Assembly: GCA_037308085.1 (NCBI GenBank)
Contig: CP147779.1
Location: 1,536,001 to 1,600,000 of the forward strand
Direction of reading: 5' to 3'
Length of the DNA stretch: 64,000 bases
Origin: Promethearchaeati archaeon SRVP18_Atabeyarchaeia-1
Lineage (GTDB): Archaea > Asgardarchaeota > Atabeyarchaeia > Atabeyarchaeales > Atabeyarchaeaceae
Below the pieces are notes generated by a model. The model searched no databases. It had not been told where the DNA came from and worked only from the letters and a program-made list of their open reading frames with translations. The position numbers and the translations under genes were made by a program. Numbering within the stretch: position 1 is the stretch's first letter; each line of letters opens with the position of its first letter. This document shows, one piece after another, positions 852 to 55,377 of the stretch.

Positions 852-1293
852 TCTCCATATCCTAGAGACGAGCCGCACACATTCTAACGGTTTGGCCTGT
901 GGATGATCGAAGATCGCGGAGAACAACTCGTTTCTCAGAAGCCTTGCCAGATGCAAAAAGAGAGTGAATGGAGCTTCGATCACTGGGTTCAGCTAAGAGA
1001 ACGATGCACATAAGGTATCTAGGGAAGACGCGCTCCTGCCTTATCCGGAGGAGAATTGGTTTCCTAGCAGTATCAAAGACTTAGTAGTTGAAGGCATGAG
1101 AGACTAGGTAGTGTGAAACCTGTCTCTAGATTAATATCAGCATTCTATTATTCGTCTGCTTGCAGGGTGATTGGCTGGGGCATGGTGAATACCTTGTGCA
1201 GAACCTCAATTGACTTGGTAGCTCAGCGCGCGCTAGATGGGAGTATAGGGACCATCCTTCGATCGCAATCCATAAATGACGAACCAGAGAGTT

Positions 1294-1878
1294 CTATTCC
1301 GTCCCCTCCTCCGTTTCTTGCAGATCCCTCTCAATTTCCGCTCTGATTCGCTTATCGTAGGCTTCTCTACAGTTGTCGTCACAGCATGCAGGAAGAGTAT
1401 AATTCGGTTCCATTTTCTGCACAATGAAGCCTTTTGCGGTAAGTCTTTCCTCCAACAGTCCGAGAAATAGCTCATACTTATCGGGTTTGTATTTCATAAT
1501 GACTTCGTCAATCTCTGAATCCGAAAGGAGCCGCTTCCCGCAATTCGCGCAACACGCGAATTGATTGACGAAATTCCTGTTGATGTAATCCCTGTCCCTC
1601 TCCATCGCTGTTTTAAGGAGATCACTCATTCGGTTTGTTTCATCAGGCCCGTACGCTTCTTTGGCCTCTAACGAGTTGGCGACCACTTGTGAAGCTAGTC
1701 TTCTTAGCGTCTCCGGTACAGAACTTTCCGTGAATCTACTAGGTTCTATAGCCGGGCCTTGTCTATAATGTCGACAATCCCTCTTTCTCGCTATGTTATG
1801 ATGCTTTAGTCCACACGTCTTAGCAAATTTGCAGTCTTCACACCAATTGATGGCAACTGGATACCGCATCCATCTCAC
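1294..1878 (-). CDS. Cys-rich hypothetical protein (putative Zn-binding)
   Basis: 194 aa with CEDC, CANC and CCDDNC clusters. 3-bp gap to the upstream ORF suggests an operon. Confidence 0.6.
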   Translation of the reverse strand: MRWMRYPVAINWCEDCKFAKTCGLKHHNIARKRDCRHYRQGPAIEPSRFTESSVPETLRRLASQVVANSLEAKEAYGPDETNRMSDLLKTAMERDRDYINRNFVNQFACCANCGKRLLSDSEIDEVIMKYKPDKYELFLGLLEERLTAKGFIVQKMEPNYTLPACCDDNCREAYDKRIRAEIERDLQETEEGTE

Positions 1879-1881
1879 CCC

Positions 1882-2295
1882 TCAAACATACATAAGCGCT
1901 AAATTCTCCTTGGTTGACCTCTCTGCTCTTTCCTTGTACTCCTTCTGAGCCGTGTTTTCACTTCCCATATCTGGCTTTGCCTTACGCCTAGGTGGTCTGC
2001 GCTTTCTTTCGACTATTGAGACGCATATCCACAATGGCAGACCTAGCCCTATGTCGTGAATCACATTGCTGATATTGTGAGTCCGGGTCGAAATGCCAAT
2101 AATTAGGCGAGACCTAGGCTTCAGAACAATAGTCATGAAACCGTCCTCATCGAAACCGGTAGCTATGACACAACCTTCTTCAATGATGCGATCAAGTGAT
2201 GCTAGATTCCTGGCATGCACTCTGAGCTGAGCCTCTCCCCTACCGTTGATAAAAAATGCTGGTAAGAGATTTTCCCATTGAAGCTTCTCACTCAT
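1882..2295 (-). CDS. Hypothetical protein
   Basis: 137-aa ATG ORF with GGAGGT just upstream; abuts the 1294..1878 ORF. Confidence 0.55.
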   Translation of the reverse strand: MSEKLQWENLLPAFFINGRGEAQLRVHARNLASLDRIIEEGCVIATGFDEDGFMTIVLKPRSRLIIGISTRTHNISNVIHDIGLGLPLWICVSIVERKRRPPRRKAKPDMGSENTAQKEYKERAERSTKENLALMYV

Positions 2296-3751
2296 TCAGT
2301 GCTACCTCCATAAGAAACCCATGTGGAACGCCGCCACCGTTCATCAAGCGTTTCACTCAATTTCTCGAACCTCTATTTATCAGCTCGACATGCTTAGGGG
2401 TTTCCGGTCATGCTACGAGTCGACCGTCCGCTCTTCTTCTCAACAACACTGTGACAGAGGTGGCTTATAAGTGTGACGGAAAAGCGCCTCTCTGGTGCCT
2501 CTAATCCAGATTTCAGACATGCTAATATCCTATAAATCAAATATAGATAACTGAATGTCCTAAATTATAAATTAAGGCTCACATTTGGTTTATTTACCAA
2601 TTCCTATATTCACTATTTCATTAATTCTTTTCTTTTCATTTGTTTCATTTATCTCACATTGTGATTTGCAGTATTTTCTGTATTTCTTATGCCCCTCCAC
2701 ATTTTAACGGAGAGAATTGCGCACCTTGTACGACCAAAAGGGAAAACCTTGCTTCCCGAACCATGCTGAAAGTAGGTGGCACAGAAGCAGACGGGTTGTT
2801 CCAGAGTGTATCATTAGTCCAATCCAGCAGGGCATGCGAGCAGACTGTGATGGCAATGTGCCCTCGCGGTGCAGTAGTAAACACCTCGACCGCAGCCTGC
2901 GTATCGCTCTTTGTAGGTCTGGTTCAGATGCTGGGTCCGTTAATAGATGCTGCCGACGAATCACTTGGAACACTCTCTCTCAAGGGGAGAGAGGTAACAG
3001 GGTTGGATCGAAATCGACATGTTGGAGAAAAAGACATCAAATTACAGGGAATCAGCTGAGGATCATAAAAGCCGAGTTATGCACAGCCAACACTACGAAA
3101 GTAGCTAAACGGTGGCGCGCTAAACATATTCTTTCAACTTTGCATCGACCTATCATTACCCTGAACTTCCCTGAACTTGTACCTCATTGAGGTGTCTGCA
3201 CCGGAGGAGTTGTCATAACAACTAATGCATTTAGTCAGTTCAAAACGATTCTCGCCATAGCCTCTTCATCGTTTTCTACATAAATCACCTTGATTCAGAG
3301 ATTGTGATTCCTAACTATTTCAGAATAAACAGCCTCTACGCGCCCTCCAACCTCAATCTGCCGCTTACTACGGTCAACATCTACCAGGCCCTACCTTCTA
3401 TCAGCCTTCTCAATGCAGTCGGTCGCATTCATTTTGAGGGTCTCATCAGCGCAGATGCCGTTGGCGGTTATCTCTGAAAGGTTGAAAGGTTTGATCATCC
3501 ATATGCGATCCTGCCTATCTACTCACATACGTCTCCATCTCAGCATCCATTTAATTTCTATTTAAATTCAATAATCCAATCTATCCGTTTCCGACCAGAG
3601 AACCAAACTCATTTATAAAAGTGCTAATATAAGCTACATAGCTATAGGCATCCGTTTAGGTAGGTACTTGTGCCCTCAACAACCTACCTTCTCACGTCAA
3701 GAACCCTTCTTAATCAGCCAAAACAATTCAAATCAATTCGATTATTATTCC

Positions 3752-3976
3752 TCACTCTGACCCGAATAATCCTGATTTATCGTCATTCGATGCAGGATAA
3801 TAACCTAATTCATGTTCTTCTATTAATTTCAAGACAATATCCTCTGCCTCTGGTCTCTCTAAATTCAATTTGCCACGCAGTAAAGAGACAGCTTCATCTG
3901 TGGATAGACTCTGCCCTTTATACTCCGCTCTCCACTTCGAGACCAGACATCTTGATGCCAGACAATATTCACTCAT
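3752..3976 (-). CDS. Small hypothetical protein, possibly wHTH-like
   Basis: 74 aa, ATG preceded by AGGTGA, amphipathic helices. Confidence 0.45.
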   Translation of the reverse strand: MSEYCLASRCLVSKWRAEYKGQSLSTDEAVSLLRGKLNLERPEAEDIVLKLIEEHELGYYPASNDDKSGLFGSE

Positions 3977-4611: not shown

Positions 4612-5696
4612 CTACTTAAGGAGTTTCTTGATGAGATTCGCAATCTTCTTTGCTAGGATCGGAGGAACTGCGTTGGCAGCCTGCTGGTACTGACTATTCA
4701 ATGTCCCCATGAATCTGAATCTATCTGGGAAGCTCTGAAGCCTCGCAGCCTCTCTGACAGAGATTATTCCATGCTGCTGCGGGTGAAGAAGCATAGCCCT
4801 TCGCGCATGAACTACCGTCGGCGAAGGCCGACGCCAGGAGAGCCTGCTGTATATACTGCTGTGAAGAGCATCTCGATTATTGAACCTTTTTTAATAGTAT
4901 CAGGCAAGATATTCCATCCTTCCTAAGGCTCTTTCCCTGACCTATCAACCGGATCGTCTCAACGACTTCATCGCTATGTTCAGTGGACCAGTGGTTGTAG
5001 AGTCTGTTAGCTCTCTTCCAAAGCGTTGCGAGATAAGGAGAACCTCTTATCTTTGGGTGGACCACATTTTCTTTCCCACCTCCGCCCCGCGGGAGTGGCA
5101 GGAGATCCTGAATTGCATCACTCACACAGGTTGCGCCTATTCGCTTCAATAACGAAAAATCAAGTTCAGCGTTATCTAGAAAGCCTGCGACAAATAGCCT
5201 CCTTCTCATCTGTGGAATCCCGAACCACTGAGCTTCCAGGCGAGCAATTGAAAGCCTGTAGCCAAGATCGTTTAGATCCTTGTCGAACGCACCCCACTTG
5301 TCCATGTTTTGAAATCTGACAACGTTTTCGAAAAGAAACCCCTTAGGTCTGATCTCTTTGACCAGCCTTACAAAATGGGAAACCGAGGAAGCAGACGGGT
5401 GATTGCCTCTACAAGGATACATGTTCGCAGGCGAATAGGGCCTGACATGGAGGGACCCCAATCACGAATACTCTTTCGAAACCCATACGAGATGCTATGT
5501 CAAGAAGTTCTCGACCATGAACATCCTCTACATCTCCCAGCACCTGCACTTTACGGAAGTTGCGCTGATATGTCTTAGCTGAGTCAGGATCCTTTTCGAT
5601 AGCAGCGACTATCTTAAAACCGGCTTCCCTGAACCCTAGATTTAGCCCGCCTGCACCTGCGAACGAATCTATGACCCCTATATCCTTTGAAAGCAT
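4612..5696 (-). pseudogene. DNA (cytosine-5) methyltransferase pseudogene, paralogue of 16845..17954
   Basis: Motif I DSFAGAGG, PPCQ/PYSPAN, FENV and REAARLQSFPD..NAVPP are split over three reading frames (at least two frameshifts). Confidence 0.9.
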
Positions 5697-8951: not shown

Positions 8952-10047
8952 TCTACCACCTATTCTCTTTTGTGTGCATGTTCTTGAGTTTCGCCTCGCT
9001 ACCTTTCAAACGTATGTATCCCTAGGTTGTTGCCGGCTGAGTCACCCGAGCAAACCAGTTCTGTGGAGTAAAGCATTTTAGACGGCATGCTCACTAATAA
9101 AGTGAGTCAAGCCCTAGCTTAATAATGAAATGCTCAGAATCAGTCGTTGCCTCTCTCAGACAGATGCGGGCTTACGCTGAACCGAGCCTTGTATGAGAGT
9201 ATGTTGTGGGCAGTTGATTTGAGCGTCTTTGACAATGGATTATGTTGGACCCTCTACGAGCTGATGTAAGAAAAGAATCCTGTCAAAAAGGAACCAACTT
9301 GGGACACCCGCGCCGTAGACGCAATCGCGATCGGATGCACTGACATCGGATGCAACAGTTTCTATCCACCGGAGTTCTGGGTTTGGAGATGCTACGAATA
9401 TTCTCGACGACAGCGCCAACAAACTCAACATGTGCTTTACAGGCAACGCTCAGAGGAATTCTGCTTTCACGGTCACATGCACTTAGACTATTTGACAGAT
9501 GAATACAGGATTGGGACAAACCCTCCAAGGTTCTTCAAATGGGCAAGACGTATACTGGTCGGTCTCTGGGTTGTCTACCTCGCGGTACGTTTGATCCTAA
9601 ATGTCATGGCGACGGTATTCCGTCTCTCAATAGTGGTATAGCTAAGAATGGAGCGATCGACATGTTCTCGAATTTTTCTTAGATATGCCACCATTCTTGA
9701 GACGGCCGGTGACCGTGGTTCTTTCTCCTTCACTACTAGTGTTGGTCATCCTATACGGTGTATCTGTGTCTGATCATTTCATTTCCATGCGTCAATCCAC
9801 TCGTTCTCAATTCGAGGTGACGCCCAGCAGTTTCCACACTAGCGGTGCGATTGTGTTTTTGAAGAAGCTGAATCCTGCAACCCAGTTCAGGCACACGGCG
9901 AAGAGGAAGCCGTATACAACTATCGTAGCGATACGCCCGGTGAGAAATTGAAGGATAGAGCCTTCTTTGTTGCTATGAGGAGTTCGGCGAACATGATGAT
10001 GGCGCCTAAGCCGAAGAAAATATCCAGCACTGGCTTCAGCGCGCGCT

Positions 10048-10154
10048 ACCATTTGGCAGTTTTAGATTTTGCCGCGAAGATATGCACCGCCAAGAATCCA
10101 AGGCACGAGGAGTGCCCTGTTCGAGCTTCTTGCGACTTCTATAAGATCCTTTAA
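10048..10154 (+). pseudogene. C-terminal relic of an HhH-GPD glycosylase (second Mig-like copy)
   Basis: YHLAVLDFAAKICTAKNPRHEECPVRASCDFY aligns with [32 protein letters not shown] of 15999..16706. Similarity starts at the palindrome 10038-10047. Confidence 0.8.
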
Positions 10155-10220
10155 CCAGTTTTCAACATTCCGTATTCTCGTATATGGTAGTACTATCTCC
10201 CAAAATATAGGGTTTTAGAG

Positions 10221-10296
10221 AAAGTTTTATAAATACCAATGTATGTTATTGTATGGAAGCAAATAAATCAAAATACATTCAATATGGCGATGTATG
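10221..10296 (+). promoter_or_regulatory. Archaeal BRE/TATA promoter with TGTATG repeats
   Basis: Purine-rich BRE followed by TTTATAAATA (10226-10235); TGTATG at 10240, 10250 and 10291. Confidence 0.5.
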
Positions 10297-10297
10297 A

Positions 10298-11338
10298 TTG
10301 AGATACATCATAGACATTCCTAGATGGCTGGACGTGAAGATCAAAGCAATATTGGCAGATGAGGGATCAGATTATTCCAGCATCGGGGAATTCATCGTAG
10401 TCGCATGCGAGAACCAAATCAGGATTGAAGCCGAGGACACTGAAGTCGGCTCAATCGAGCCCGTGGCTACGGAGAAGAATGTTCCCAGGAAAGAAAAGCT
10501 AGAACACTTGTTGAGTTCTGATATCTCAGCAGTCTCCACGGTGAATAGTCCAAGTCCAGACAAGGTCGACGCTATTCTGCTATGGGGGCAAGTTAACAGG
10601 ATCTTTCCAATCAAACTGGGCACACGTGTTTTAGCCAACTCTCTCAAAGATATGGGCGCTGGATTAATGAATCTGGAGGATTTTAGAAACAAAGCTACGA
10701 GAATTGCCAGGGAATTCGGTCTGAAATTAAGAATTCTCGACAAGAGGAAAATGCGCAAACCCGGCGAGAAGTTATCAACAGGTCTGCCTGCAGGTAGCAA
10801 GGCAGAGCTTTCAATGAACCGCTACAAGGCGCACTACTTAGCGTACCAGACTGGAAAGGGAACTCTCTCGGGAGCACTTGCTGACCTGCGCCTCGCAAAC
10901 ATCGAAGGCGACAACATTGGCATAACTGAAAAAGGACTAGAGTTTGCAAAGTTAAGCAACCCTCTCCTAGATTCCAAAGAAGCCAATTTGACCATGCCCC
11001 TATCAGGGGGGGAGATCAAATGCTTTCTTTCTCTAGTCAGTGAATTCCTTCCAGACGAACATGCGTTCATGAACACTGTGCTCGGAATGATTGAGTCCGG
11101 AGAGCCTCCAAGGGAAGTGTTCAATTCAAGGGTCAAGGGATTTCTCGAGAAAGTTTGGAAGAGAGAGATAACAAACGCGGTGGCAAATACAATGAGATCG
11201 GGAGTATTGAGTAGGATGTGGGAGCTTAAGCTTGTTGAATGTAGACATGTTGGAAAGACCGTTGTATACTCGGCAGTCAGAGGAAGCGGAGGGGAACTCG
11301 GTGGCGCGAAGGAAGAGGTTTCCAGCAATAAGATTTGA
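10298..11338 (+). CDS. DNA-binding protein: N-terminal RHH-like plus winged-helix domains
   Basis: YIIDIP..LD..I......YSSIGEFIVVACENQI (RHH pattern); IGITEKG and LSRMWELKLVE..YS (wHTH wings). Confidence 0.7.
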   Translation: MRYIIDIPRWLDVKIKAILADEGSDYSSIGEFIVVACENQIRIEAEDTEVGSIEPVATEKNVPRKEKLEHLLSSDISAVSTVNSPSPDKVDAILLWGQVNRIFPIKLGTRVLANSLKDMGAGLMNLEDFRNKATRIAREFGLKLRILDKRKMRKPGEKLSTGLPAGSKAELSMNRYKAHYLAYQTGKGTLSGALADLRLANIEGDNIGITEKGLEFAKLSNPLLDSKEANLTMPLSGGEIKCFLSLVSEFLPDEHAFMNTVLGMIESGEPPREVFNSRVKGFLEKVWKREITNAVANTMRSGVLSRMWELKLVECRHVGKTVVYSAVRGSGGELGGAKEEVSSNKI

Positions 11339-11350
11339 GGTGAGTGTAAG

Positions 11351-14399: not shown

Positions 14400-14664
14400 A
14401 AGCGGGTCTCCTCGACTCTGGTGAACTCTTATTACGATATTTGAGGTCTTGCTTTAGAAGTCCAATTATCCTTGCTCCAAGGGACTTCGCGAAAAGAAGT
14501 GGTATGGCATTCGCGACTTGTTGGGTTGGGAACGCAGAGTACCTAAGAACAAGTAATCATCTGGAAACGACTGGATGCGTGCTGGTTCCCTCACTGAGAG
14601 CCCTCTATCTTGTTCTGGATGAATGAGCATGCTCTTGCGGAGGTTTGTGAGCGCAGCGCGCGCT

Positions 14665-42854: not shown

Positions 42855-42911
42855 AGTTTACTACCTTCCATATCCATCCTTTGCTGTCTACGGTTCTATC
42901 AATCAGGAGAC

Positions 42912-43048: not shown

Positions 43049-43471
43049 TTGAGCGAGGAAGGCAAAGTTGTCGTCTTGGCCTGTAGTGGCATAGGTAAGG
43101 TTCTGGGGTCGATCACTCGCTTGGTCCTCTACCACATAATAGATGAAATGAGGAGGCAGAACACGACCACGACTTGTCTGCCACTGGTTGCGCTCAAGGA
43201 CAAAGAAGCCGTTGCGCTCGTCAGTAACCATCCATGCATAACTATTGACGGCTGCCCTAACAAATGTGCGAAGGTTTCTGCTGAGAACGCTGGTGCGACC
43301 GCGGTAAAGGCTTTCACTGTGGCCGAGTTCATGCGGAAGTTCAAAGACCTGAAGCCTTCAGCCGCTTCAGTGCTGGAGCCCGGACAAGGTGGAAGGGCAC
43401 TCGCGCGCAAGATTGCTGAACAAATAAGTCTGGAAGTCGACGAGCTATCAAACGAGAATGTCCGGTTTTGA
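43049..43471 (+). CDS. DGC-domain putative Zn-binding protein
   Basis: ACSG, CLP, IDGC...CA. Confidence 0.85.
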   Translation: MSEEGKVVVLACSGIGKVLGSITRLVLYHIIDEMRRQNTTTTCLPLVALKDKEAVALVSNHPCITIDGCPNKCAKVSAENAGATAVKAFTVAEFMRKFKDLKPSAASVLEPGQGGRALARKIAEQISLEVDELSNENVRF

Positions 43472-43937
43472 GGAGGTCCCACGGTTGAGTGAGCATGGCG
43501 ATTGGATGCGCAATAAGGTTGGCGTGGTAACGTGCAGCGGAGAAGAAATCTCCGAGGGAATGGTCTCTAGAGTAGCTGCGAGAAAAGTCCTTGAAGAGCT
43601 CGAACCTAATGACACTATGACGATATGTATTCCTCTTTACTTGGCGGGAGGCGAGGAGGAGAGAAGCTTTGTAACAAAGTCCCCAACAGTCACAATTGAT
43701 GGTTGTGATAAGCTCTGTGCGAAAAGGAGTGTTGAGAAGGTTGGGGGTCGACCCATAGCGGCGGTTGTGGTTACTGACTTCATGAAGAGAGAACACGTCA
43801 AACTCAAGACAGAGTCGCGAAGGGAACTTGAGCCAAAGGGTGCAGAACTGGCAAACACCATTGCTTCCAAGGTCGCTGCCATTATCGAGGATTACGTGAA
43901 GGCTCAAGGCAGAGTGACTGGAAGAAGGGAGGGGTAG
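43458..43937 (+). CDS. DGC-domain putative Zn-binding protein (paralogue)
   Basis: TCSG, CIP, IDGCDKLCA. Confidence 0.85.
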   Translation: MSGFEEVPRLSEHGDWMRNKVGVVTCSGEEISEGMVSRVAARKVLEELEPNDTMTICIPLYLAGGEEERSFVTKSPTVTIDGCDKLCAKRSVEKVGGRPIAAVVVTDFMKREHVKLKTESRRELEPKGAELANTIASKVAAIIEDYVKAQGRVTGRREG

Positions 43938-43941
43938 GAAC

Positions 43942-44397
43942 ATGGAGTTTCTTGAATTTACTATTGACAAATTCATCTTCAGAGTGGTCAAAGGCAACAA
44001 GTACTCTCAAGATGATGTCTGGCTTGCTAGTGCGGGTGAGAGAAGGTGGAGGATCGGGATAACTGACTTCCTTCAGAAAACGAGTGGCGACGCAGTAATT
44101 GCACAATTGCCAGATTTGGGCAGGACCTTTCAGAGGGGTAGCGAGGTGGCGCAGTTTGAAACTGTTAAGACTATCATCTCAGTTCCTATGCCCGTCACCG
44201 GCAAAGTTGTCGAAAGAAATGACAGGATTCTTGATGAGCCTGGGCTCTTGAACAGCGATCCGTATGGTAAAGGCTGGATAGTCACAGTTGAAGCGAGTAA
44301 CGTAGAGAAAGAGTTCAAGCACTTGCTCTCTGACAGCTCCTATTTTGAGTTAATGAAGAAAAAGGTCAGCGAGGTTCAATCCAAGCCGAGAAAGTAA
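43942..44397 (+). CDS. gcvH: Glycine cleavage H-like lipoyl carrier
   Basis: IGITDF.Q...GD, ETVK (lipoyl Lys), N.DPYG.GW. Confidence 0.88.
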   Translation: MEFLEFTIDKFIFRVVKGNKYSQDDVWLASAGERRWRIGITDFLQKTSGDAVIAQLPDLGRTFQRGSEVAQFETVKTIISVPMPVTGKVVERNDRILDEPGLLNSDPYGKGWIVTVEASNVEKEFKHLLSDSSYFELMKKKVSEVQSKPRK

Positions 44398-44472
44398 ACA
44401 TGTCAATATAACATTGTCTCTTGGATCATCGTGTCTATTCCAGAGCCAGATATGTAGGGGTGGTGTTAGTTC

Positions 44473-44898
44473 TTGCCAGTCTACAGAACTAAGGTAACTT
44501 GGTTGGGCGGGAATACTGGTAGCCTTGAGTGTGGGAATGGCACCCGAATGGATTTTAGCGCTCCTCCAAGCCTCCACGGCAAACATGGGGTGATGACTCC
44601 GGAGGATGGTTTCGTGGCTTCGCTGAACATGTGCGTGCACATGATGTTTATTTGGGTCGCAGAGAGGATGAAGATAGAACTTCTGTCTTATGAGTGTGAA
44701 GCGGAGGGGACAGTTCAGGACAGACTTGATAGGACATCCGTCTTTACGAAGCTGATTTTGAGACCAAGAATAGTAGTTAGGATGGCGACAGAAGAGAAGG
44801 TCAAACAGGCGATGCAGCTAGCGAGGAAATTCAGTCTAGTGGCAGAATCAATAAGACCTGAGGTAGTCATTGAGCCCGAGGTAACAATTAAGCGTTAA
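44473..44898 (+). CDS. OsmC-family protein
   Basis: APP...G.....TPED..VASL..C; second Cys apparently replaced (FSLV). Confidence 0.8.
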   Translation: MPVYRTKVTWLGGNTGSLECGNGTRMDFSAPPSLHGKHGVMTPEDGFVASLNMCVHMMFIWVAERMKIELLSYECEAEGTVQDRLDRTSVFTKLILRPRIVVRMATEEKVKQAMQLARKFSLVAESIRPEVVIEPEVTIKR

Positions 44899-45103
44899 CA
44901 CTCCTCTCACCGTATTAACCAGAGTCGCACCTGCTATATATGTGAAGGTCATCTATACGAGCCAGTAGAAGCAGGAGTCTTTGGTGTCTTTGCCTTGGTT
45001 ACGCCCGCTATTTGCGCATCATACCCAAATTTCGTTATTGTGGTGGTCAGCGGATGCGTCAAGTACGAACCTAAGAAGTTCTGAAGAAAACCAATATGGC
45101 GTG

Positions 45104-45820
45104 TTACCCTGTTCCTCTTCTTATCATCTCTGCATACTCGTGTGGTAACTCTGAAGCCTCGATGGCGCTCGTCATTCTTTCCACATCATATTGAACTCTC
45201 CTAAAACCTATGCTCAACTCTTCAGCTGGAGTCAAGAGAGCGTAAGTTGCCCTTGGGTCACCATCCTTGGGCTTTCCGAGACTTCCGACGTTTACGACAT
45301 GCTTATCGTCTATCACCTTGTGGTAGGGCAGATGCGTATGTCCACACACGAGGAGATTGCATCCTCCTGCCTGCAGGAGGCGATTGAAGGTCTTCGCTGG
45401 TCTGTCCTCGTATAGGTACTCATTAATCCTTCTGGGGCTACCATGAGTGAGAAGGATCTCGAATGCCTCTTGGCTGAAGCGTAGCTCGCGCGGCAGGGTC
45501 CTCAGGAATTCCTTGTTCTCCCTTGTGACGTGGGTCTTCGTCCAATCTAGGGAGCGGTGACCGAGCAATCTCTGCGTTTCGTCTGTATAAGCGCACCCAC
45601 AGTCGTCTCTCTCAAAGCCGACACCTTCATCATAGTTGCCCATCACACCTGCGATTCCCTTGCTCCTTATGCTGCTTATCACTTCATTTGGAAAGGGGCC
45701 GTATCCAACAAGGTCCCCACAGTGGAGGATCTTGTCAGCGCCTTGCTCTTCAATGTCAAGGAGAACCGACTCAAGGGCGGGAAGGTTGCTGTGAACATCG
45801 GAGAAAATCGCGTACTTCAT
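45104..45820 (-). CDS. Metallophosphoesterase (calcineurin-like; ars-operon-associated type)
   Basis: SDVHSN, GDLVGYG, GNYD, DCGCAY, HGSPR, GHTH. Confidence 0.9.
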   Translation of the reverse strand: MKYAIFSDVHSNLPALESVLLDIEEQGADKILHCGDLVGYGPFPNEVISSIRSKGIAGVMGNYDEGVGFERDDCGCAYTDETQRLLGHRSLDWTKTHVTRENKEFLRTLPRELRFSQEAFEILLTHGSPRRINEYLYEDRPAKTFNRLLQAGGCNLLVCGHTHLPYHKVIDDKHVVNVGSLGKPKDGDPRATYALLTPAEELSIGFRRVQYDVERMTSAIEASELPHEYAEMIRRGTG

Positions 45821-45844
45821 GGGGGGTGACCATCTCGAGTTTCT

Positions 45845-46234
45845 CTACTTCAGCGATTCCAGTTTCTTCATGGTCTCAACAATCTTTGGGTTTGCAAGGG
45901 AATAGTAAGCCCACTTCCCTTCTTTCCTTCTTTCTAGCAAACCCTCCTTCTCCAACAGCACTAGGTGGTGAGACGCAGTTGGTTGTGTCATGTCCAATGC
46001 AGCCATTATCTCGCAAACGCACATCCTGCGAACCATTAATAACTTCAATATTCTAATTCTGCTGTCGTCACTTAGAGCTTTGAAGAGCCGGCTTTCTCTG
46101 ATGGCTAAATCCTTGTTCGCTACCTTGGCAGCCAACTCCTTCAACTCATTCGCGTATCTGGAAGCATCTTTGCCCTGGCAATAGGGCGAAGCAACCAACC
46201 TAACCAGTCTCCTGTCAGAATGACTCTTCGACAT
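45845..46234 (-). CDS. arsR: ArsR repressor
   Basis: FKALSD..RIRIL, MCVCEI (alpha3 As(III) site), SHHL..L...GL. Confidence 0.9.
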   Translation of the reverse strand: MSKSHSDRRLVRLVASPYCQGKDASRYANELKELAAKVANKDLAIRESRLFKALSDDSRIRILKLLMVRRMCVCEIMAALDMTQPTASHHLVLLEKEGLLERRKEGKWAYYSLANPKIVETMKKLESLK

Positions 46235-46253
46235 GTTCTCATCCACTGCTAGT

Positions 46254-46277
46254 TCATATCTGCGAGACCAAATATGT
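46254..46277. promoter_or_regulatory. Operator copy upstream of arsR
   Basis: TCATATCTG-CGAGAC-CAAATATGT. Confidence 0.65.
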
Positions 46278-46487
46278 ATTTTGCCGGAAGGCAACTTCAG
46301 CCGCTTGAGCTATTGAAGCACCTTGACCCCATAAAGATCTGTGAAACGGCCAGCGCCGCGTTCCCCCCTATTTCTGTCGGTGACGGTCTGCCCCTCCTCT
46401 GAGCATTGTTCCAAACCAGTATCTATGTTAATCTCTTGTCGCTTCTGTGCCGATCATAATAAGATATATATGTCACTTCTTGCGGAT

Positions 46488-46519
46488 TCATATTAATAAA
46501 TCTAAATACGTAAATATGA
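46488..46519. promoter_or_regulatory. Operator copy (or copies) upstream of acr3
   Basis: TCATATTAA-TAAATC-TAAATACGT, plus an overlapping TAAATATGA half-site. Confidence 0.6.
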
Positions 46520-46531
46520 ACCTAGATAGCG

Positions 46532-47620
46532 GTGTGGAACATGCCTGAGAAATCCTTGAAGAAACTTTCGCTGATCGATAGGTTACTTCCGATCTGGATT
46601 TTTCTTGCGATGGCTATCGGCGTGGGAGCAGGGTGGGCATTCCCACAGATTGCGACGATTTTTAACATGCTCCAGATAGGAACGGTTTCGCTTCCCATTG
46701 CGATCGGATTGCTGTGGATGATGTATCCTCCCCTTGCTAAGGTGAAGTATGAGGAGCTCGGGAAGATTAAGGGTGCGAAGAAAATGTTTGGAGTGTCGCT
46801 CTTCCTAAACTGGGTAATTGGACCTTTCCTCATGTTTTCGCTGGCCTGGCTCTTTCTGCCTGATCTGCCTGATTATAGGGTTGGTATCATCATAGTTGGG
46901 TTGGCTAGATGCATTGCGATGGTCTTGATATGGAACCTGCTTGCAGGCGGTGATAGTGAGTATGCCGCTGTCTTGGTTGCTCTCAATTCGATCTTCCAGA
47001 TGGTGTTCTACTCGATCTACGCCTACTTCTTCGTGACCTTGCTCTCCTCTTGGGTAAGCGGGTCTGCGGGCATGGTCGTGAATATCTCGGTTTGGAGTAT
47101 CGCGCAGAGCGTTTTGATCTTTCTCGGTCTTCCTTTCGCCGCCGGAATAATCACTAGGTTCACGTTGATCCACAGAAAGGGGAAGGTATGGTATGAAGAG
47201 AAATTCATTCCGAGGCTGAGCCCCACCGCAATCATCGGCCTCCTCTTCACAATAGTCGTAATGTTCTCCATGAAAGGTGAGTACATATTGAATTTGCCTT
47301 TTGATGTGCTCAGGGTTGCCGTCCCTCTGGCGTTGTATTTTCTGATAATGTTTTTCACTTCTTTTCTCCTGTCTTGGCGCTTGAGGTTCAGTTATCCTGA
47401 AACGGCGACGCTCTCCTTTACCGCTGCGAGCAACAACTTTGAGCTTGCGATAGCTGTAGCTGTCGGGGTGTTCGGGATAAACTCGGGGCAGGCTTTCGCC
47501 GCAGTCATAGGGCCTCTAATCGAAGTTCCGGTGCTTATCGGCCTAGTCTACGTTTCACTCTGGCTAAAGACCAAGATGTTCGCCAAGGCGAGAAGATCTG
47601 GGATGAGTGGCAAGACCTAA
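46532..47620 (+). CDS. acr3: Acr3 arsenite efflux transporter
   Basis: [36 protein letters not shown]. Confidence 0.95.
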
Positions 47621-47901
47621 GAGCGATGCTGCAAGCCTGAAAGCCAACGGTAGCTTAGTCTGAATCTGAAGGACGGAACGGGTGGGAGAGGCAAGGACGC
47701 TCAACTTCAGCGAGGACTCCGTCGAAAGACTCAAAGACTCGCCGGTGAAAAGCGCGCGCTCCGTTTCTGGAAAACTCTGAATATGTGAGAGTGTCTAACA
47801 AGTTTTCCTCAATGAAGAAAGAAAGAGTGAGTGGCTTTTAGGTTCACACTTCCGTAACCCTAATCCTTTCTGGTAGGTAGCGCGCGCTATGAGGGCTAAA
47901 T

Positions 47902-49095
47902 CTAATCGTGTAGAGTAATAGCGACTGGTATCAAAAGGATGAATGCTGCGCCAGTAAAAAGGAAGGTCATATTGATGCTCATGAACCCCATTAGCACACC
48001 AGCCATCAATGGGCCAAGCGTATAGCCTACGTCTTTGAATGCGGCTATCGCCCCAGTCATGGCCACCTTGTTTTCCCCGAGCGTATCAGACATCCTCGAG
48101 TATAACACTATGAAGATCATGGTATAGCTTACTGTAAAAGCAGTCAAGATTGCCATCGTATAGTATATGCTACTCGCGAAAGGTATTATGCTGCTTGGCA
48201 ACGGTATCAGGATCGCAGTGACGGTTGTGAATACTGTCGCCACTATCAGCGTCCTGCGTACGCCAAATCTGTCCACCGCGTTTCCCATCGGTACTTCGAG
48301 AGCAACGGCAGGCAAGAGAGCCACCGTAAGTAATGTACCGATTGTAGGAATAGGGATTCCTTCACTGTAGAGGAGTACCGATAGGAATGAGTAATAAACG
48401 TTGATCAAAGCATAGAACACGACTGTTAGAAAAATAGTCTTTATGAATCGTCTATTACGCATATACTTGAATAGTGTCGCGGTTTGACGACTCGAATGTG
48501 CTCTCTGAGATCTAGGTATATTCTTCAAGAAGATTGAGATCACAAGGAATGCGGTAAAGCTTGTTAGACTAAGCAAATAGAACGGTAGTGAGAATGAAAT
48601 GATAGTGACGAGGCCTCCTATGATGGGGAATATGGCTGAGGCTAGATCATTCATGTCGGAGAAGAATCCGGTTTCCTTTCCCTTTACCTCCTTTTCGGCA
48701 TAGCTGAAGATGTAAGCCCACGAAGTTAGCCAGAGGAAAGATGATGCAACTCCCCTAGTGACACTTACCAGCAGTAGTGGCAGGAAGGAATTTGCCACAG
48801 TATACAGTAATGCAAGGATGGAGTAAACGAGTAACACCACTTGGAGAACTCGTTTCATATTTATCCTGTTCTCTGCGAGACCGACGGGTATATTGAGGAA
48901 TATTCCCATCATTGTTGTCAGTGAAAGAATAACGCCAGTCATGAACAGATCTCCAGTCACGTTCTGTATATATATCGAGAAAACTGGTGAGGCAATTCCC
49001 CAACCGCCAGTGTAGACAAAAAACGCGACCGAGACTGGCAATATTACCCTTTTGAAATTGGTGATATGCCGTAACTCGCTGAACTCCTTGAACAT
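47902..49095 (-). CDS. MFS transporter
   Basis: About 12 TM helices; DRFGVRR; GYTLGP. Confidence 0.85.
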   Translation of the reverse strand: MFKEFSELRHITNFKRVILPVSVAFFVYTGGWGIASPVFSIYIQNVTGDLFMTGVILSLTTMMGIFLNIPVGLAENRINMKRVLQVVLLVYSILALLYTVANSFLPLLLVSVTRGVASSFLWLTSWAYIFSYAEKEVKGKETGFFSDMNDLASAIFPIIGGLVTIISFSLPFYLLSLTSFTAFLVISIFLKNIPRSQRAHSSRQTATLFKYMRNRRFIKTIFLTVVFYALINVYYSFLSVLLYSEGIPIPTIGTLLTVALLPAVALEVPMGNAVDRFGVRRTLIVATVFTTVTAILIPLPSSIIPFASSIYYTMAILTAFTVSYTMIFIVLYSRMSDTLGENKVAMTGAIAAFKDVGYTLGPLMAGVLMGFMSINMTFLFTGAAFILLIPVAITLHD

Positions 49096-49553
49096 ATGAA
49101 ACACCGAGACAGCTTGGTAGGTAACGTGTGCACATAAATATTGCTTTTCGAAATTCGCCTCTCTGTATCTAGCCAGCAAAATAACGAGAAGAACCAAGGA
49201 GTCGCATAACTGCTCAGTTCTGCACAATGTCTACTTGAGTGCCTTTTGCTGAGTGCAGATGCCATTGCCTATCCCAAGAACCCCGTATATGAGGCTAGTT
49301 GCGGGAAACTGCGTATGGACAGAGAGCGCACCAGCGAAAGACTCCAACACTCAACGGTATTTGAGTCTAGTTCTGCCGGCATCCTCTTTTAGCGCGCGCT
49401 GCGCAGATTGCAGTGAAAGCTGGAATCGACTCAACAAAATGAAGTCTAGTATACTGAATGCAACTTATGGCAACTTGAAGAAACCTCTACCATTTTGCAG
49501 TGTTCAGGATAGCCGCGGGGTCATGCTATGGTGGGCAAAGCCCATGATCTTAT

Positions 49554-50596
49554 CTAGGGTTTCGAACGATTCCCACGCGCGTTAAGAGAGTTCAATTTAT
49601 CTCTGAAGATTTTGAGAGACTCGTGATCTGTGAGCACGTAGACCAGATCTCCTTCCTCAAGCTGAAAGTCGTCTACCATATCAGTCATGCTCTCACCGTT
49701 TCTGTAGACAAGCAGGATAGGGCAGATTCCCATGATGTCTCTGTACTGGATTCCAGAGTTTCTTATTCTGAACTCGGCAACGTGCCTCGACTTCAAGTTG
49801 TCTGTAAGGAAGACACCAGCTACCTCCTTTGAACTGGAAGACAATGCAAGTATTTGCCCCGTAATCTCGGAAAACGGGATTACTATGTCAGCACCCGCAT
49901 CCCTCACACCTTTCACTAACTCTCTGTCGTTGACTATGGAGACAGTTCTAATGCTGTTATTGAGCTTCTTTGCCATCATAACTGTCAGCATGTTGTCACC
50001 GTCGTCTTCTAACGTGGATAGTAGGGTGGATGCTTTCTCAACGTTTGCATCCTTAAGCGCCTCATAAACGTTGGTTATAGGCGCGAACATACCTGGAATG
50101 TTACGGGACCTCAGAAGGTCGAGCTGGCTCTCGTCTCTGGCGATAACGATGTATTCGAGTTTGAGTGACTAATGCTCTCCACCACGTATTTCCCTAAGAA
50201 CATGTAACCAACCACGATTACGTGGTTCTCCATCCTCTTCGCCAGTTTCTGGCTCAGCTCCTCGGTCATAAGCCCCTTCTTAATGGTTGCGGAGACAGTT
50301 ACTTGAAGGAGAGACGCGGCTGAACCCACGGCTATGATGAAGACGAATATGAGTAGAACCTTTTCCGTGCTGACCATAGTAACTATGTTGGGCGCGTAGA
50401 TACCGATGGTCGTGATTGTAGAGATCGAGCCTAGAAGGGCGGTCAGAAAGTCTAGCCCCTGATAGTACATGAATATCAGCGCCCCAATCAAGAACATTGA
50501 GAAGAGTATAGTGAGTTGAATCCAGACGCGCTTAAGGATGTAGTACGGCGCGTAGACTGCGATGTCGAGCGTTCTTCTTAGCCTTTTCGCTTTCAA
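49554..50596 (-). pseudogene. K+ channel with RCK (TrkA-N/C) domains, split by one frameshift near 50165
   Basis: TITTIG pore helix, NHVIVVGY..LG; continues LKLEYIVIARD..AGAD.VI.P in another frame. Confidence 0.8.
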
Positions 50597-50949
50597 ATTC
50601 TCGCGTTTCCCGCTCGTTTCCTAGGGGTAGAATTCACGAATCTTTCAACGTGTTCCTGCGTCCACAATGCCCGTCCACTTTTCTTACGACCTTCAAACCT
50701 GCAGTTGCATTCAGAAACTCCGCGCAGCCGTACAAAGTTTTCCGGATAACCTTGGTCTTACCAATCGCACTTGGCTTCTATTATTCACTTCGATGTACTT
50801 CTTTCATGGATTCCTTTCGTCCATGGTCATGGGCAGCAGTCATCAGCGCTCGCGATCAGCAGTAGAATGGAATGGCACCAAGAGCGATGAGAGGAATTGC
50901 CAGAAAGGTGTAACGCTGGCGCGCGTTACGTGCTGCTTGTTCAGCTTGG

Positions 50950-51348
50950 TCAGGTGAGATTCTTCACTTGGTGTGCAAGGATTCCTCTATATCTCGAAGC
51001 ACATTTACGTTCTTCAGAGGAGGCTCTTCTTGCAGCCCACTCTAGAAGCGGAGTGATTGATTTCCTGAGTTCCGTTCCGTCGGTGGTAAGTGAGTATTCT
51101 ACACGGGGAGGTATCTCCGAAAAGGCTTCTCTCCTGATTATGCCTTCACCTTGAAGTCCTTTCAACGTGTCAGATAGGGTTTTGGGGCTGATGCCACCCA
51201 ACTCTTCCATGAGCCCATTGAACCTGAGCCTCCCATTATTGCCGATAGCGTTGACGACCAGGAGCGCCCACTTCTTGCCTATAACATCTATGACGCCTTC
51301 AAGAGGGCAGAGGCATACATGATCACCATTTTCACACATACTAATCAC
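50950..51348 (-). CDS. HxlR-family regulator
   Basis: CP....DVIGKKW, ISPKTLS..LK.L, PPRVEYSLT. Confidence 0.9.
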   Translation of the reverse strand: MISMCENGDHVCLCPLEGVIDVIGKKWALLVVNAIGNNGRLRFNGLMEELGGISPKTLSDTLKGLQGEGIIRREAFSEIPPRVEYSLTTDGTELRKSITPLLEWAARRASSEERKCASRYRGILAHQVKNLT

Positions 51349-51444
51349 TTACTCTGTGCATAGTCACTGTCTTGCTATAAACTTGGTAGTATAAATACTT
51401 CACTTTTGATATTGTTAACCTCATAGAAATGAGGTGAACAAAAA

Positions 51445-51630
51445 ATGTGTTGCCGTTGCAATTGTGAACAGCATCATCATGAGGAAGGACGAGAAGATGA
51501 ATACGGCCTATGCCACACAAGGCGTTTCCTAACTAAAGCAGAGAAGACTGAGAAAATGAAGGGCTATGCAGAGGAGCTAAGGAAGGAACTTGCAGCAGTC
51601 GAAGAGCACATCAAAGAATTGGAAAGCTAA
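51445..51630 (+). CDS. Small Cys/His-rich coiled-coil protein (DUF5320-like)
   Basis: MCCRCNC..HHH, RRFLTK.E, coiled coil; GAGGTGA RBS; divergent from HxlR. Confidence 0.7.
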   Translation: MCCRCNCEQHHHEEGREDEYGLCHTRRFLTKAEKTEKMKGYAEELRKELAAVEEHIKELES

Positions 51631-51844
51631 GGGTAGTCGCGAAATAGACGTCCAAGAACTGCGTTCCCCCTTTCCAATCGCGGGATCATAGTCAAGAACT
51701 GCTTACCTAAAGAAAGAACCAAGTCAGAGAAGGAACCCCCATTTGGGAAACAATGAGTCAGACTGAGACCGGGGAGCGCACAAACCTGCTAGGATGAGGC
51801 TTTGGATTGCAGATAGCTTCTGAGAACGAAAGGAGACTGGAAAT

Positions 51845-52774
51845 ATGACTGCGGAAGACGCCATTGAAGTCTCAAATCTAACCAAACACTATGATAACCT
51901 ACTGGCGGTCGATCACATAAGCTTCGAGGTTAGGAAGGGAGAGATCTTTGGCTTCTTGGGTCCCAATGGTGCTGGCAAGACAACTACGATTAGAATGCTC
52001 ACTGGTATCATCAAACCTGATGACGGCGCGGCTTCGATCTTGGGCCATGACATTCTGAGAGAGGGGCTCAAGAGTAGACAAGTAACAGGGGTCGTTCCAG
52101 AAATGGCGAATGCCTACATTGACCTCTCAGCCTGGGGAAACCTGACACTGATGGGCGAGTTATATGGAGTACCCAGGAGGCAGAGAGAGAAGAGCGCCTC
52201 TGCGCTCCTGAGAAAAGTCAGGCTATATGATCGAAGGAATAGCCTTGTAAGAGGATTCTCAAGAGGAATGAAGCAGAGGCTGCTATTGTGCATGGCACTC
52301 GTCAGTGAGCCACAAATTCTCTTCCTAGACGAACCCACGTCAGGTCTAGATGTCGAGAGCCAATGGTTGATAAAAGATATGATTCGTGAAATCAACAAAA
52401 GCGGAACAACTGTGTTCTTGACAACACATAACATGGAAGAAGCTAACCAGCTCTGCGATAGAATAGCAATCATCAATCACGGCAAGATCGCAGCGATCGA
52501 TACTCCAGAGAAGCTCCGCATGCAAAGCAGCGGATTGAACTCCGTCGAGGTAAGCTTCGAAAAGGCGATACAAGCTGAAGAATTGATGAAAATCGAAGGT
52601 GCAAGAGAGGTCAAAAAAACTGGGGATAAGATAAGACTGTACACAGATCAGCCAAGCATAGTACTCGAGAGGATTGTTGATTTTGCGCGCTCAAGGAGGC
52701 TCAAAATAGTCACCCTCAACACGTTAGGTCCCACTCTAGAAGACGTATTCCTAAGACTTGTGAAGGAAAGTTAA
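51845..52774 (+). CDS. ABC exporter ATP-binding subunit (DrrA-like)
   Basis: GPNGAGKTT, FSRGM, LDEPT. Confidence 0.93.
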   Translation: MTAEDAIEVSNLTKHYDNLLAVDHISFEVRKGEIFGFLGPNGAGKTTTIRMLTGIIKPDDGAASILGHDILREGLKSRQVTGVVPEMANAYIDLSAWGNLTLMGELYGVPRRQREKSASALLRKVRLYDRRNSLVRGFSRGMKQRLLLCMALVSEPQILFLDEPTSGLDVESQWLIKDMIREINKSGTTVFLTTHNMEEANQLCDRIAIINHGKIAAIDTPEKLRMQSSGLNSVEVSFEKAIQAEELMKIEGAREVKKTGDKIRLYTDQPSIVLERIVDFARSRRLKIVTLNTLGPTLEDVFLRLVKES

Positions 52775-52780
52775 GGGAGG

Positions 52781-53548
52781 ATGATGCGATTCTTGGGCAA
52801 ACATGTTTATTCGGAGCAGTTCAAACGGTCTCTTGCGATCGTCAAGAAGAACATACGGATCTACTACTCTAAGGGGCCCGTAATCACTTTTGGTCTTCTG
52901 ATACCATTCTTTCTTTTTCTTTCGTTCTATATTGGGAGGAGTTCAAGTGTTGAGGATTTGATACCCGGGTTGCTTGCAATAACTGTCTTCTTCACAGCTA
53001 GCTCGGTGGGGCCCGCAATAGTTCCTTGGGAAGCGAGATCAAAGACTCTCGAGAGGCTCGTATCCTGTCCCGTCTCAATCTGGACGATCTTTGTCGGCGA
53101 CATGCTTTCATCCTTCCTGTTCGGGGCCATTATCTCAGTATTTCCTGTGATCATCGGCTTGTTGCTAGGCGTGGAGATAGCCAGCCCGCTATTGCTTGGA
53201 CTCGGAATAACTGCGGGAGCATTATGTTTTGCAGCTTTGGGAGTGCTCATGTCTGCCTATCCGCCGACAGATGTTCCAGCGACCATAATGATGCTGTCTT
53301 CTATGATCAAGTTTCCGCTGGTTTTTATAAGTGGTATCTTCATTCCCATTCAAGAGCTGCCGGACTGGGGCAGAATAGTCTCCTCATTTTCTCCGTTGAC
53401 ATATTTCACAGATCTGGGGAGGAGCTCAATACAAGGCTACAGCTACTACCCCTATTGGCTGGACATCGTGGTCGTGGTCGCATTCGCAATTGTCTTCTTG
53501 GTCTCAGCCGTGAAACTTCATGAACGCACAATACAGAAACGACTTTGA
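52781..53548 (+). CDS. ABC-2 permease
   Basis: 6 TM helices; FISGIF.P...LP.W, PLTY. Confidence 0.9.
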   Translation: MMRFLGKHVYSEQFKRSLAIVKKNIRIYYSKGPVITFGLLIPFFLFLSFYIGRSSSVEDLIPGLLAITVFFTASSVGPAIVPWEARSKTLERLVSCPVSIWTIFVGDMLSSFLFGAIISVFPVIIGLLLGVEIASPLLLGLGITAGALCFAALGVLMSAYPPTDVPATIMMLSSMIKFPLVFISGIFIPIQELPDWGRIVSSFSPLTYFTDLGRSSIQGYSYYPYWLDIVVVVAFAIVFLVSAVKLHERTIQKRL

Positions 53549-53730
53549 GACGCACAAAGATGAAGCGAATATCCTCTACGAGGAAGAAGAAAAAGGTGCA
53601 CCCTCGCTCGTCCTAGCGCACGGGGCAGCAATCGTCAGCTGGCAGCACGCGACCTCGCTGATTTGTGGAACAGTCCGCTGACTGCCAAGATGGCAGTGAA
53701 GGTGGGCGCTTTGGGGTCTCTGGATGAATC

Positions 53731-54207
53731 TTAATCCTTTTTTGTTTTCTTCCTCTTGTTGTATCTGTACTGGTAGTATCCGAAAGAACTCATCATAATG
53801 AAGAAGGAGACCACAAGCATATTTCCATAGAAGTTTGAGACTAGGTATCCATACCAGTTCAAGCCTATACTTCCGATGAAAAGGAGCAGAAGGTAAACAG
53901 TGAGGCCGATTGGCCAACGGTCAGGATGATGATAGGGCTTCTTTCGAGTGATTAAACGATACCAAAGGTCGTAGACCAGATAGATGATTATGGGTAGTCC
54001 TGCTACCAAACGTCCTGAATCGTTGCCAATTAAGAGGTTCACCACCCAAAGCAGAGTGAAGGGTATCAGCTGGAGACTGAACACAGGGCTCAACTTCCAC
54101 TCCAGCTTTTCGAGTTGGTGAGCACGCAACAGATATACGACTATCAGGAAAGCATAGAAGACCAGCGCAAAGAAGATAACAAGATTATCGATAAGAACTT
54201 TATCCAT
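53731..54207 (-). CDS. Membrane protein
   Basis: About 5 TM helices, basic C-terminus. Confidence 0.65.
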   Translation of the reverse strand: MDKVLIDNLVIFFALVFYAFLIVVYLLRAHQLEKLEWKLSPVFSLQLIPFTLLWVVNLLIGNDSGRLVAGLPIIIYLVYDLWYRLITRKKPYHHPDRWPIGLTVYLLLLFIGSIGLNWYGYLVSNFYGNMLVVSFFIMMSSFGYYQYRYNKRKKTKKD

Positions 54208-54565
54208 GAGACAGAGCCAACCTGATATTTGACAAGAATTGAGGATAAGAATGTTAGAGTCTGGGGATTCAATACGGTCCTAACTGTGCATATAACGTTT
54301 TCAAGCGCGCGATTTATCTCTTTTTCTTCTGCTGCTTCCTGCTGCTACGTTGAAGCGCTCTACTAGGATAACTACGATGATGGCTCAGTCAGGGACTGCA
54401 CCGAAAGACTCTGGCACCAAGCAGTGTTTGAGTGTAGTTCCCCTATAGCGCGCGCTCATAGAAGGGGGGGATGAGAGTTCTTGATGTCCACATAGGTATG
54501 CCTTTAATACTTTGTTGAGTCAAGGTTTTGCAGAGTTCGAGAAGTTGTACGGGCTGGTTCTGAGC

Positions 54566-55147
54566 ATGACAAGAAAGAAGGTTGGAAGCAAGCCTCTCCT
54601 TTTCCCATTCCCGGTCACGATAGTCGGGGCAGATGTCGGTGGAAAACCAAACTTCATGGCGATCGGATACATTGGAATAATCGATGACACACCATCCATG
54701 ATCGCACTAGGATCACTAAAGAGCCATTACACAAACAGAGGCATCATTGAAAACAAGACCTTCTCTGTCAACATCCCAACAGAAGAGATGCTCCAAATCA
54801 CCGACTATGTAGGGACAATCTCCAGGGAGAAGGTAGACAAGTCGAAGCTATTCGATGTCTTCTACGGTAGGCTGAAGAACGCACCAATGATAGAGCAGTG
54901 CCCAGTCAACCTTGAATGCAAGGTTCTCGATATCCTAGAAAAAGGGGGCACGTATTACAACATCATTGGCGAGATTGTTGAATCTTATGTTGACGAGAAA
55001 TACGTGACTGGAAAGTACCCGGACATCGAGAAGATGAAACCTATGGTCTTCTCAGTAGCCGGCGCCAAGTACTACTCAATTGGCAAGTACCTTGGAACTA
55101 TGGGGAGCGCGAGCAAGGACTTCAAACGCGAGATAAAAAAGCAATAG
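54566..55147 (+). CDS. Flavin reductase (flavoredoxin) family
   Basis: FP.PVTIVG, HYT...I....FSVNIP, APMI..CPVNLEC. Confidence 0.88.
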   Translation: MTRKKVGSKPLLFPFPVTIVGADVGGKPNFMAIGYIGIIDDTPSMIALGSLKSHYTNRGIIENKTFSVNIPTEEMLQITDYVGTISREKVDKSKLFDVFYGRLKNAPMIEQCPVNLECKVLDILEKGGTYYNIIGEIVESYVDEKYVTGKYPDIEKMKPMVFSVAGAKYYSIGKYLGTMGSASKDFKREIKKQ

Positions 55148-55377
55148 CCTTCAGCAGCGCGCGCTAATTGAAACCAGAGCCAGGCGGAGAGGATGGTGTG
55201 GTGGCACTTCTCAGATAATATTTCGCAGAGACTAGCAGAGAGATCAGAAGAGGCGATGTGGAGCTACCCTAGACGCATAATGCATGGTCTCGGTATTGAG
55301 CGGTCAGCCAGACGCTCAAAAGTAATATCAATAGTGCAGATCGGAGGGGCGAGAGAACGGAAAAAATACCGCCGTCT

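Follow-up and report, generated by a model that had tools for sequence, protein, structure and literature searches.

A fixed ten-base palindrome at DNA junctions in Atabeyarchaeum and its possible origin as end-joining filler

We analysed a stretch of 64,000 nt (hereafter the window) from the genome of Atabeyarchaeia-1, a soil Asgard archaeon whose assembly (G000) consists of one contig of 2,808,651 bp. In this window the ten-base palindrome AGCGCGCGCT abuts truncated genes and truncated repeats. We consider it somewhat probable (about 55%) that AGCGCGCGCT is a lineage-specific filler of the form A(GC)4T that is written at rejoined DNA ends in the genus Atabeyarchaeum. The copies in excess of chance join sequences that were formerly not neighbours, or fill the place of a short deletion where the DNA is otherwise contiguous, and the motif is missing from the cut sequences wherever an intact version exists. 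Comparisons were made with G001, a metagenome-assembled genome (MAG) of another species of the same genus (Atabeyarchaeum, group 1; 280 contigs), and with G002, the genome of a sister genus. Five-digit coordinates without a label are window positions, and those labelled "genome" refer to G000.

Enrichment of the palindrome and loss of homology at its edges

The window contains eight exact copies of AGCGCGCGCT (Table 1), against an expectation of 0.07 and a maximum of 1 in dinucleotide-preserving shuffles, and the A...T flanks were present on every GCGCGCGC in it. The initial annotation of this DNA had counted at least eight perfect copies where far fewer than one was expected, and had placed none of them inside an intact gene. 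Both statements hold, and none of the eight copies lies in a long open frame. Its wording "highly iterated" was too strong, since the whole 2.8-Mb genome holds only 17 copies, eight of which fall within this one window. Approximately 2 copies were expected genome-wide (Markov orders 0-5), and among the 1024 ten-base palindromes AGCGCGCGCT was the top outlier in G000 (z = 10.8; runner-up, z = 4.1). One-mismatch variants of the motif occurred at background level in the same genome.

Open frames of at least 150 aa make up 83% of the G000 genome and hold 2 of the 17 copies (p = 3e-10). Three copies were classified as background coding hits, a number equal to the chance expectation: genome 1835381, which encodes QRAL where the G001 orthologue has QRVL; genome 2503396, inside a 186-aa frame; and genome 1708549, which aligns without indels to TGCGCGCACT and AGCTCGGACG in paralogues. 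None of the 14 excess copies is coding, and all are situated in accessory DNA. The earlier analogy with HIP1 does not survive this distribution. HIP1 (GCGATCGC) of cyanobacteria occurs roughly once per kb, coding DNA included. Both motifs are short GC-rich palindromes that are over-represented relative to Markov expectation, and HIP1 too has been discussed in connection with recombination and methylation, but here there are only 17 copies in 2.8 Mb, and those in excess are found at junctions and never in coding DNA.

The excess is specific to one genus. G001 contained 16 copies of AGCGCGCGCT compared with 1 of a control word. All 16 were outside likely genes, three of them in long stop-to-stop frames but upstream of plausible start codons. 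The sister genus G002 had 3 copies, and among 298 further Asgard genomes the maximum was 5 copies each. Recurrence of the same excess in a MAG of a different species also bears on whether the copies are an assembly or curation artefact at strain-variable regions. The copies do sit in variable regions, and the G000 genome was hand-curated from short reads, but its authors validated it with Nanopore and PacBio data (PMC11291895), a word of ten bases is not long enough to join assembly graphs, and the copy at genome 868700 (described below) lies within well-conserved DNA. We regard an artefact as very improbable. Neither of the two papers on the G000 genome mentions AGCGCGCGCT (PMC11291895, PMC11529989), and no description of it was found in the literature, where full-text matches for the 10-mer or for GCGCGCGC were primers and unrelated uses.

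At seven tested flanks that have a homologue elsewhere, homology to other loci ended 0-4 nt from the palindrome. These flanks were the left side of 10038, the relics of a Mig glycosylase gene and of a C5 cytosine methylase gene, L025:4000, L030:5195 and, in G001, L013:3713 and L014:5277. Homology ended within ~10 nt of the palindrome at an eighth flank (G001 C139). To the left of the second copy, the homology of a small membrane-protein open reading frame (ORF) to G002 (120.4-120.6 kb) stops at base 10038, and the G002 ORF is ~10 N-terminal codons longer. To the right, the EndoIII/Mig iron-sulfur (FeS) loop begins directly after 10047, and this relic is paralogous to an intact Mig gene at 15999-16706. 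Intact Mig, like the intact dif-like repeats described below, lacks the palindrome. Because the Mig relic and the C5-methylase relic each abut a copy, 10048-14654 is a fragment with two cut-gene ends.

Much of this had been anticipated. The initial annotation had seen a glycosylase fragment and a membrane-protein fragment on the two sides of 10038 and a gene fragment ending at 14655, the latter being the C-terminal part of the methylase. It had also noted copies within about 15 bp of stop codons, as is found for copies 5 and 8. Its reading of the palindrome as a scar that marks rearrangement junctions is borne out, for insertion junctions as well, by the cut genes and by homology that stops at the motif. 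The link it suggested to the local Dcm methylase and T:G glycosylase is not supported: the cut sequences include relics of these very genes, which makes them victims and not agents. The breaks in homology, which fall exactly at the palindrome, also leave little room for a protein-binding operator or other regulatory palindrome of accessory genes. Such a motif would be intergenic, exact and dyad-symmetric, as this one is, and one copy abuts a TATA-like box. However, the position relative to genes varies (5', 3', between convergent genes and inside gene relics) with no consistent promoter spacing, and we give this explanation the lowest probability of those considered.

Junctions at dif-like repeats and around accessory segments

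Several copies adjoin a repeat, here called H, which is an 11-6-11 dif-like dyad consisting of GACTCAAAGAC, a 6-nt spacer and GTATTTGAGTC, followed by a T-tract. H delimits accessory gene modules. Approximately 8 copies were found in G000, seven of them at 40.6-58 kb of the window (40591-57982) and another at genome 868684; the repeat is also present in G001 (C125, C185) and in G002. The palindrome lies within 60 nt of 4 of the ~8 H sites and cuts H at a different point each time: it interrupts the dyad itself at 47751, follows it by 12 nt at 54447, coincides with the T-tract at 49391 and takes the place of the other arm at 868700. That copies 4, 6 and 7 follow a repeat, given as 33 bp long, had been observed before and was confirmed for the hairpin repeat H. 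The palindrome was considered as a part of H and rejected as such, since it lies at varying distances from H and does not always truncate the repeat at the same point. The proposed link to a recombinase serving the cassette sites has some support: the palindrome accompanies half of the dif-like sites, and one break falls exactly at an arm/spacer boundary.

This break, at genome 868700, offers a direct view of an allele without the palindrome. G002 is 90% identical on both sides and has an intact dyad, GACTGCAGTAC-TTGGCA-GTATTTGAGTC. In G000, 15-16 nt (one arm plus 5 nt) have been swapped for 8-9 new bases that complete AGCGCGCGCT, and the break coincides with the boundary between arm and spacer of the dif-like site. 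Neither the palindrome nor AGCGCT is present there in the G002 allele. The 868700 copy is a patch in contiguous DNA and not a cassette boundary.

The alignment at 868700 largely refutes a restriction scar, in which A^GCGCT would be cut, the 4-nt overhangs filled in and the blunt ends joined, so that GCGC is duplicated. The idea has some appeal. AGCGC+GCGCT is the exact product of such a fill-in, GCGC is N4-methylcytosine (m4C)-methylated in these genomes (PMC11529989), and a 15-kb stretch around copies 2 and 3 is devoid of AGCGCT. However, AGCGCT is absent from the breakpoints in the intact counterparts, and the +1 base is a purine in 74% of the palindrome flanks compared with 46% after genomic AGCGCT. 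A search for HaeII-family enzymes found nothing, but carries little weight because the control genomes also gave nothing. A restriction origin appears highly improbable.

Outside the window, the comparable copies sit in G000-specific extra DNA inside syntenic core regions. One such insertion of 0.8 kb carries the palindrome and a gene resembling 4-oxalocrotonate tautomerase (4-OT; named from its translation only). Another, of 2.5 kb, carries a LarA_N-like gene (L026:1561-4074, L026 being genome 456681-464681) and separates the 3' end of the 23S rRNA gene from the RNase P RNA gene, which are ~90 bp apart in G001 and G002. A 2.6-kb G000-specific mosaic has two copies, and a further copy adjoins a TIR-domain gene, with a paralogue of the window integrase ~16 kb away. 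At the rRNA locus we also observed ~100 extra bases within the 23S rRNA gene of G000 (L026:1037-1134) relative to G001 and G002, with flanks 93-100% identical; this may be a small rRNA intron. Separately, repeats of ~115 nt, made up of gene 3' ends and terminator-like T-tracts, form a cluster at genome 2.700-2.712 Mb and have relatives in G001 (C94) and G002 (2.64-2.66 Mb). The cluster has no palindrome in G000, and the homologous G001 array has two.

Some copies are arranged in pairs. Segments lie between two copies at 47751/47879, 54447/55156 and genome 2454975/2456172 and in three G001 pairs, with sizes from 64 bp to 8.8 kb. This is what would be expected if the palindrome were the crossover or attachment core of an integron-like or att-like site-specific recombination system, in which circular one-copy cassettes recombine with a chromosomal copy to yield copy-cassette-copy arrays. 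A tyrosine integrase is present in the island, both copies of a 4-OT cassette (see below) start at a GC tract, and another element in the G000 genome has a known att core of 11 bp (PMC11529989). Against this, seven non-coding copies are single, and the 868700 copy is a 16-nt replacement without any cassette. No conserved recombinase-binding arms were seen: a pyrimidine precedes and a purine follows the motif in 46 of 62 half-flanks, which beyond this purine bias at +1 hold no other information. The cut genes and dif-like sites lack the palindrome when intact, and in coding DNA the motif is at background level only, so the pre-existing crossover site of the initial annotation is not upheld. Relatives of the window's flavin reductase gene elsewhere carry no such site. 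We judge a recombination site unlikely.

Mobile-element origins were tried and rejected. Seven bounded segments had no target-site duplications, and neither shared internal sequence nor conserved ends beyond the repeat were seen. Ends of insertion sequences (IS) or of miniature inverted-repeat transposable elements (MITE) were excluded by a self-comparison of the genome, in which no repeat family ended in the motif except the duplicated 4-OT cassette. A site borne by cassettes from a donor pool was likewise rejected: among 39 metagenome loci with flavin-reductase relatives (at most 47% identity along most of the protein length) a single copy was present, no more than the background level.

The 4-OT cassette is ~320 bp long, and its two copies (genome 374865-375186 and 2153054-2153378) are 95% identical and carry a small gene. 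Both begin at a GC tract, one at A(GC)4T and the other at T(GC)5T plus 4 nt, with three degenerate GC tracts no more than 150 bp from the second copy. GC-alternating hexamers were approximately five-fold enriched within 200 bp of the palindromes (18 observed, 3.7 expected, p ~0.001). Together with the different tracts at which the two 4-OT cassette copies start, this indicates that old GC tracts decay and slip and that the same places are hit more than once.

Alternating GC is a classic Z-DNA former, and (GC)4 could be a fragile sequence (a Z-DNA or cruciform former, or the target of a rare cutter) that causes the rearrangements and is not their product. The clustering of GC tracts at hot spots agrees with this, and viruses that belong to the sister lineage have PacI-like rare cutters (PMC11529989). 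However, fragility explains neither how a tract originated inside once-intact Mig, methylase, membrane and H sequences nor the fixed A...T flanks, and at 868700 an ancestral allele without the tract has already been seen. We consider a fragile sequence unlikely, slightly more so than a recombination site.

End joining with a fixed filler

Addition of new bases at the joined ends is favoured because it alone accounts for the cut genes as well as for the patch at 868700. A crossover site or fragile tract that was there beforehand is disfavoured because the intact Mig, methylase, membrane and H copies are without the palindrome. We infer a tail-and-pair mechanism. Each 3' DNA end would gain a short tail, with A first and then alternating G and C; two of these self-complementary tails would pair, gaps would be filled and nicks sealed. 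The outcome would be A(GC)4T between the ends, regardless of their identity. The same joining process would seal deletions, capture foreign fragments (defence modules and small gene cassettes) and mend the cassette array where it is broken at its dif-like recombination sites. Such tailing agrees with the symmetric A...T and with the rare variants that have (GC)3 or (GC)5.

Classical Ku/LigD joining is ruled out in G000 and G001 because Ku is absent from both. Ku (PF02735) was not found in these two genomes and was present in G002 (G002:C1:1523792-1524331, L092, 137 bits), and a control genome was also matched; with three genomes this contrast is anecdotal. Searches for PolX gave only sub-threshold hits in G000, G001 and G002. 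The joining route would thus not be Ku-dependent, and archaeal primase PriSL or another nucleotidyl transferase are candidate enzymes. PriSL is the nearest known activity, and its role in Atabeyarchaeum is putative. In Saccharolobus, PriSL contributes terminal transfer and microhomology annealing to break repair, with small insertions and deletions (PMC12019639). End joining by Saccharolobus PriSL(X) thus resembles the process proposed here in being archaeal and Ku-independent and in using a terminal transferase and microhomology annealing that leave small indels; unlike it, no fixed GC filler is mentioned in the abstract of that study (PMC12019639).

The junctions share the main properties of end-joining fillers or N-nucleotides, such as those of TdT/Pol mu, the LigD polymerase domain and Pol theta. 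Extra non-parental bases are found exactly at the join, in deletions, insertions and captured fragments. The bases at 868700 are new to both parents, and non-neighbours are joined at arbitrary breakpoints in Mig, methylase, membrane ORFs and H. Known fillers are random or copied from nearby DNA, whereas here one fixed self-complementary word is used in two genomes that lack Ku. The identical 10-mer at 14 sites in G000 and 16 in G001 is unlike random or locally templated filler. Two other systems are similar in arrangement. In the dRS3 repeats and NIMEs of Neisseria, short dyad repeats bound small intergenic mosaic segments and coincide with rearrangement breakpoints. dRS3, however, is 20 bp long with a variable centre and is the target of a phage integration enzyme, whereas the present motif is created where it was absent before. 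The other parallel is with pdif (XerC/XerD) modules of Acinetobacter plasmids and integron attC cassettes, since the palindrome lies within and next to arrayed 11-6-11 dif-like sites by which accessory gene modules are set off; here the pdif analogue is H, which the palindrome cuts at variable places.

Several points weigh against a filler of this kind. Its length is almost always (GC)4, which loose tailing does not predict; the near-constant length may point to templated or protein-measured synthesis. We know of no polymerase that writes a fixed 10-base word, and the enzymes named above are candidates only. Judging from the 4-OT cassette, a moved segment can take a GC tract along or use one again. 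A clean two-sided "before" allele is available at 868700 only, where polarity rests on the intact dyad of G002 without an outgroup. Identity to the relatives is only 70-85%, which leaves most intergenic breakpoints short of base precision, and the junctions were read from assembled sequence and not at read level.

Rejoining of breaks without Ku, and capture of foreign DNA without homology, are poorly understood in archaea. A broader generalization can be put forward only tentatively, and we hold it to be rather less probable than the filler itself: some archaeal lineages, here a Ku-less Asgard genus, may own a dedicated end-joining route that places a fixed self-complementary tail on any end and builds defence islands and cassette arrays by capturing arbitrary fragments. 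If true, a constant filler that pairs with itself would make such events readable in genomes, where gene loss and capture could then be counted and dated directly. For the published complete G000 genome, depth-resolved short-read, PacBio and Nanopore population data exist, so that before and after alleles can be searched without new sampling.

Features of the window and minor observations

The features adjoining the eight copies are listed in Table 1. The first 20 kb of the window are a mosaic of defence modules and gene relics that ends at the tyrosine integrase. The copies at 47-56 kb lie in the H array, among accessory genes encoding an MFS transporter, an ABC transporter, a flavin reductase, an S-adenosylmethionine (SAM) methyltransferase and ParE.

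Table 1. Copies of AGCGCGCGCT and adjoining features in the window.
Feature	Position	Strand	Remarks
Copy 1 of AGCGCGCGCT	1225..1234		Intergenic, within defence island; no long open frame spans it
Small membrane-ORF relic	9920..10037	-	5' end cut by copy 2
Copy 2	10038..10047		Junction of membrane-ORF relic and Mig relic
Mig/EndoIII glycosylase C-terminal relic (FeS loop)	10048..10154	+	PF10576, 29.1 bits; starts directly at copy 2
4.6-kb segment	10048..14654	+	RHH, GHKL ATPase, DUF1016-like operon; a truncated gene at either end, in each case next to a copy
C5 cytosine methylase C-terminal relic	14472..14654	-	PF00145 profile positions 270-298, 24.5 bits; cut by copy 3
Copy 3	14655..14664
Dif-like hairpin repeat H, truncated after spacer	47716..47750	+	Compared with intact H at 40591, 56341 and 57141
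Copy 4	47751..47760		Replaces right arm of H
Orphan segment, 118 bp	47761..47878		Between two copies
Copy 5	47879..47888		13 bp past stop of MFS transporter gene (47902-49227, minus strand)
H repeat, tail cut at T-tract	49328..49390	+
Copy 6	49391..49400
H repeat, tail cut 12 nt after right arm	54395..54446	+
Copy 7	54447..54456
699-bp segment bounded by two copies	54457..55155	+	Flavin reductase gene (PF01613, 76 bits) with its own TATA-like box
Copy 8	55156..55165		9 bp after flavin-reductase stop

The defence island contains one intact C5 methylase gene and two relics. The second relic (4626-5461, minus strand) covers PF00145 positions 92-169 and shares 73% identity across 253 nt with the intact gene (16845-18032). 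The tyrosine integrase gene occurs twice, with 90% identity between the copies (window 18254-19726; genome 1661974-1663446), and a common element of ~96 nt (19631-19726 in the window) accompanies both. This element matches several places in G001 and G002 at 90-96% identity and probably represents the att region of the defence islands. A TnpB gene (OrfB_IS605, Cas12f-like TNB) at window 20095-21336 lies in a stretch of 57% GC and has an 89%-identical copy at genome 1904824-1906275. Several further repeat families of ~1.3 kb are present in the G000 genome. With respect to other short words, GGCC is strongly depleted throughout G000 (5510 observed, 10030 expected, z = -45) and TTGCAA and AAATTT are also under-represented, which suggests restriction pressure on these words.

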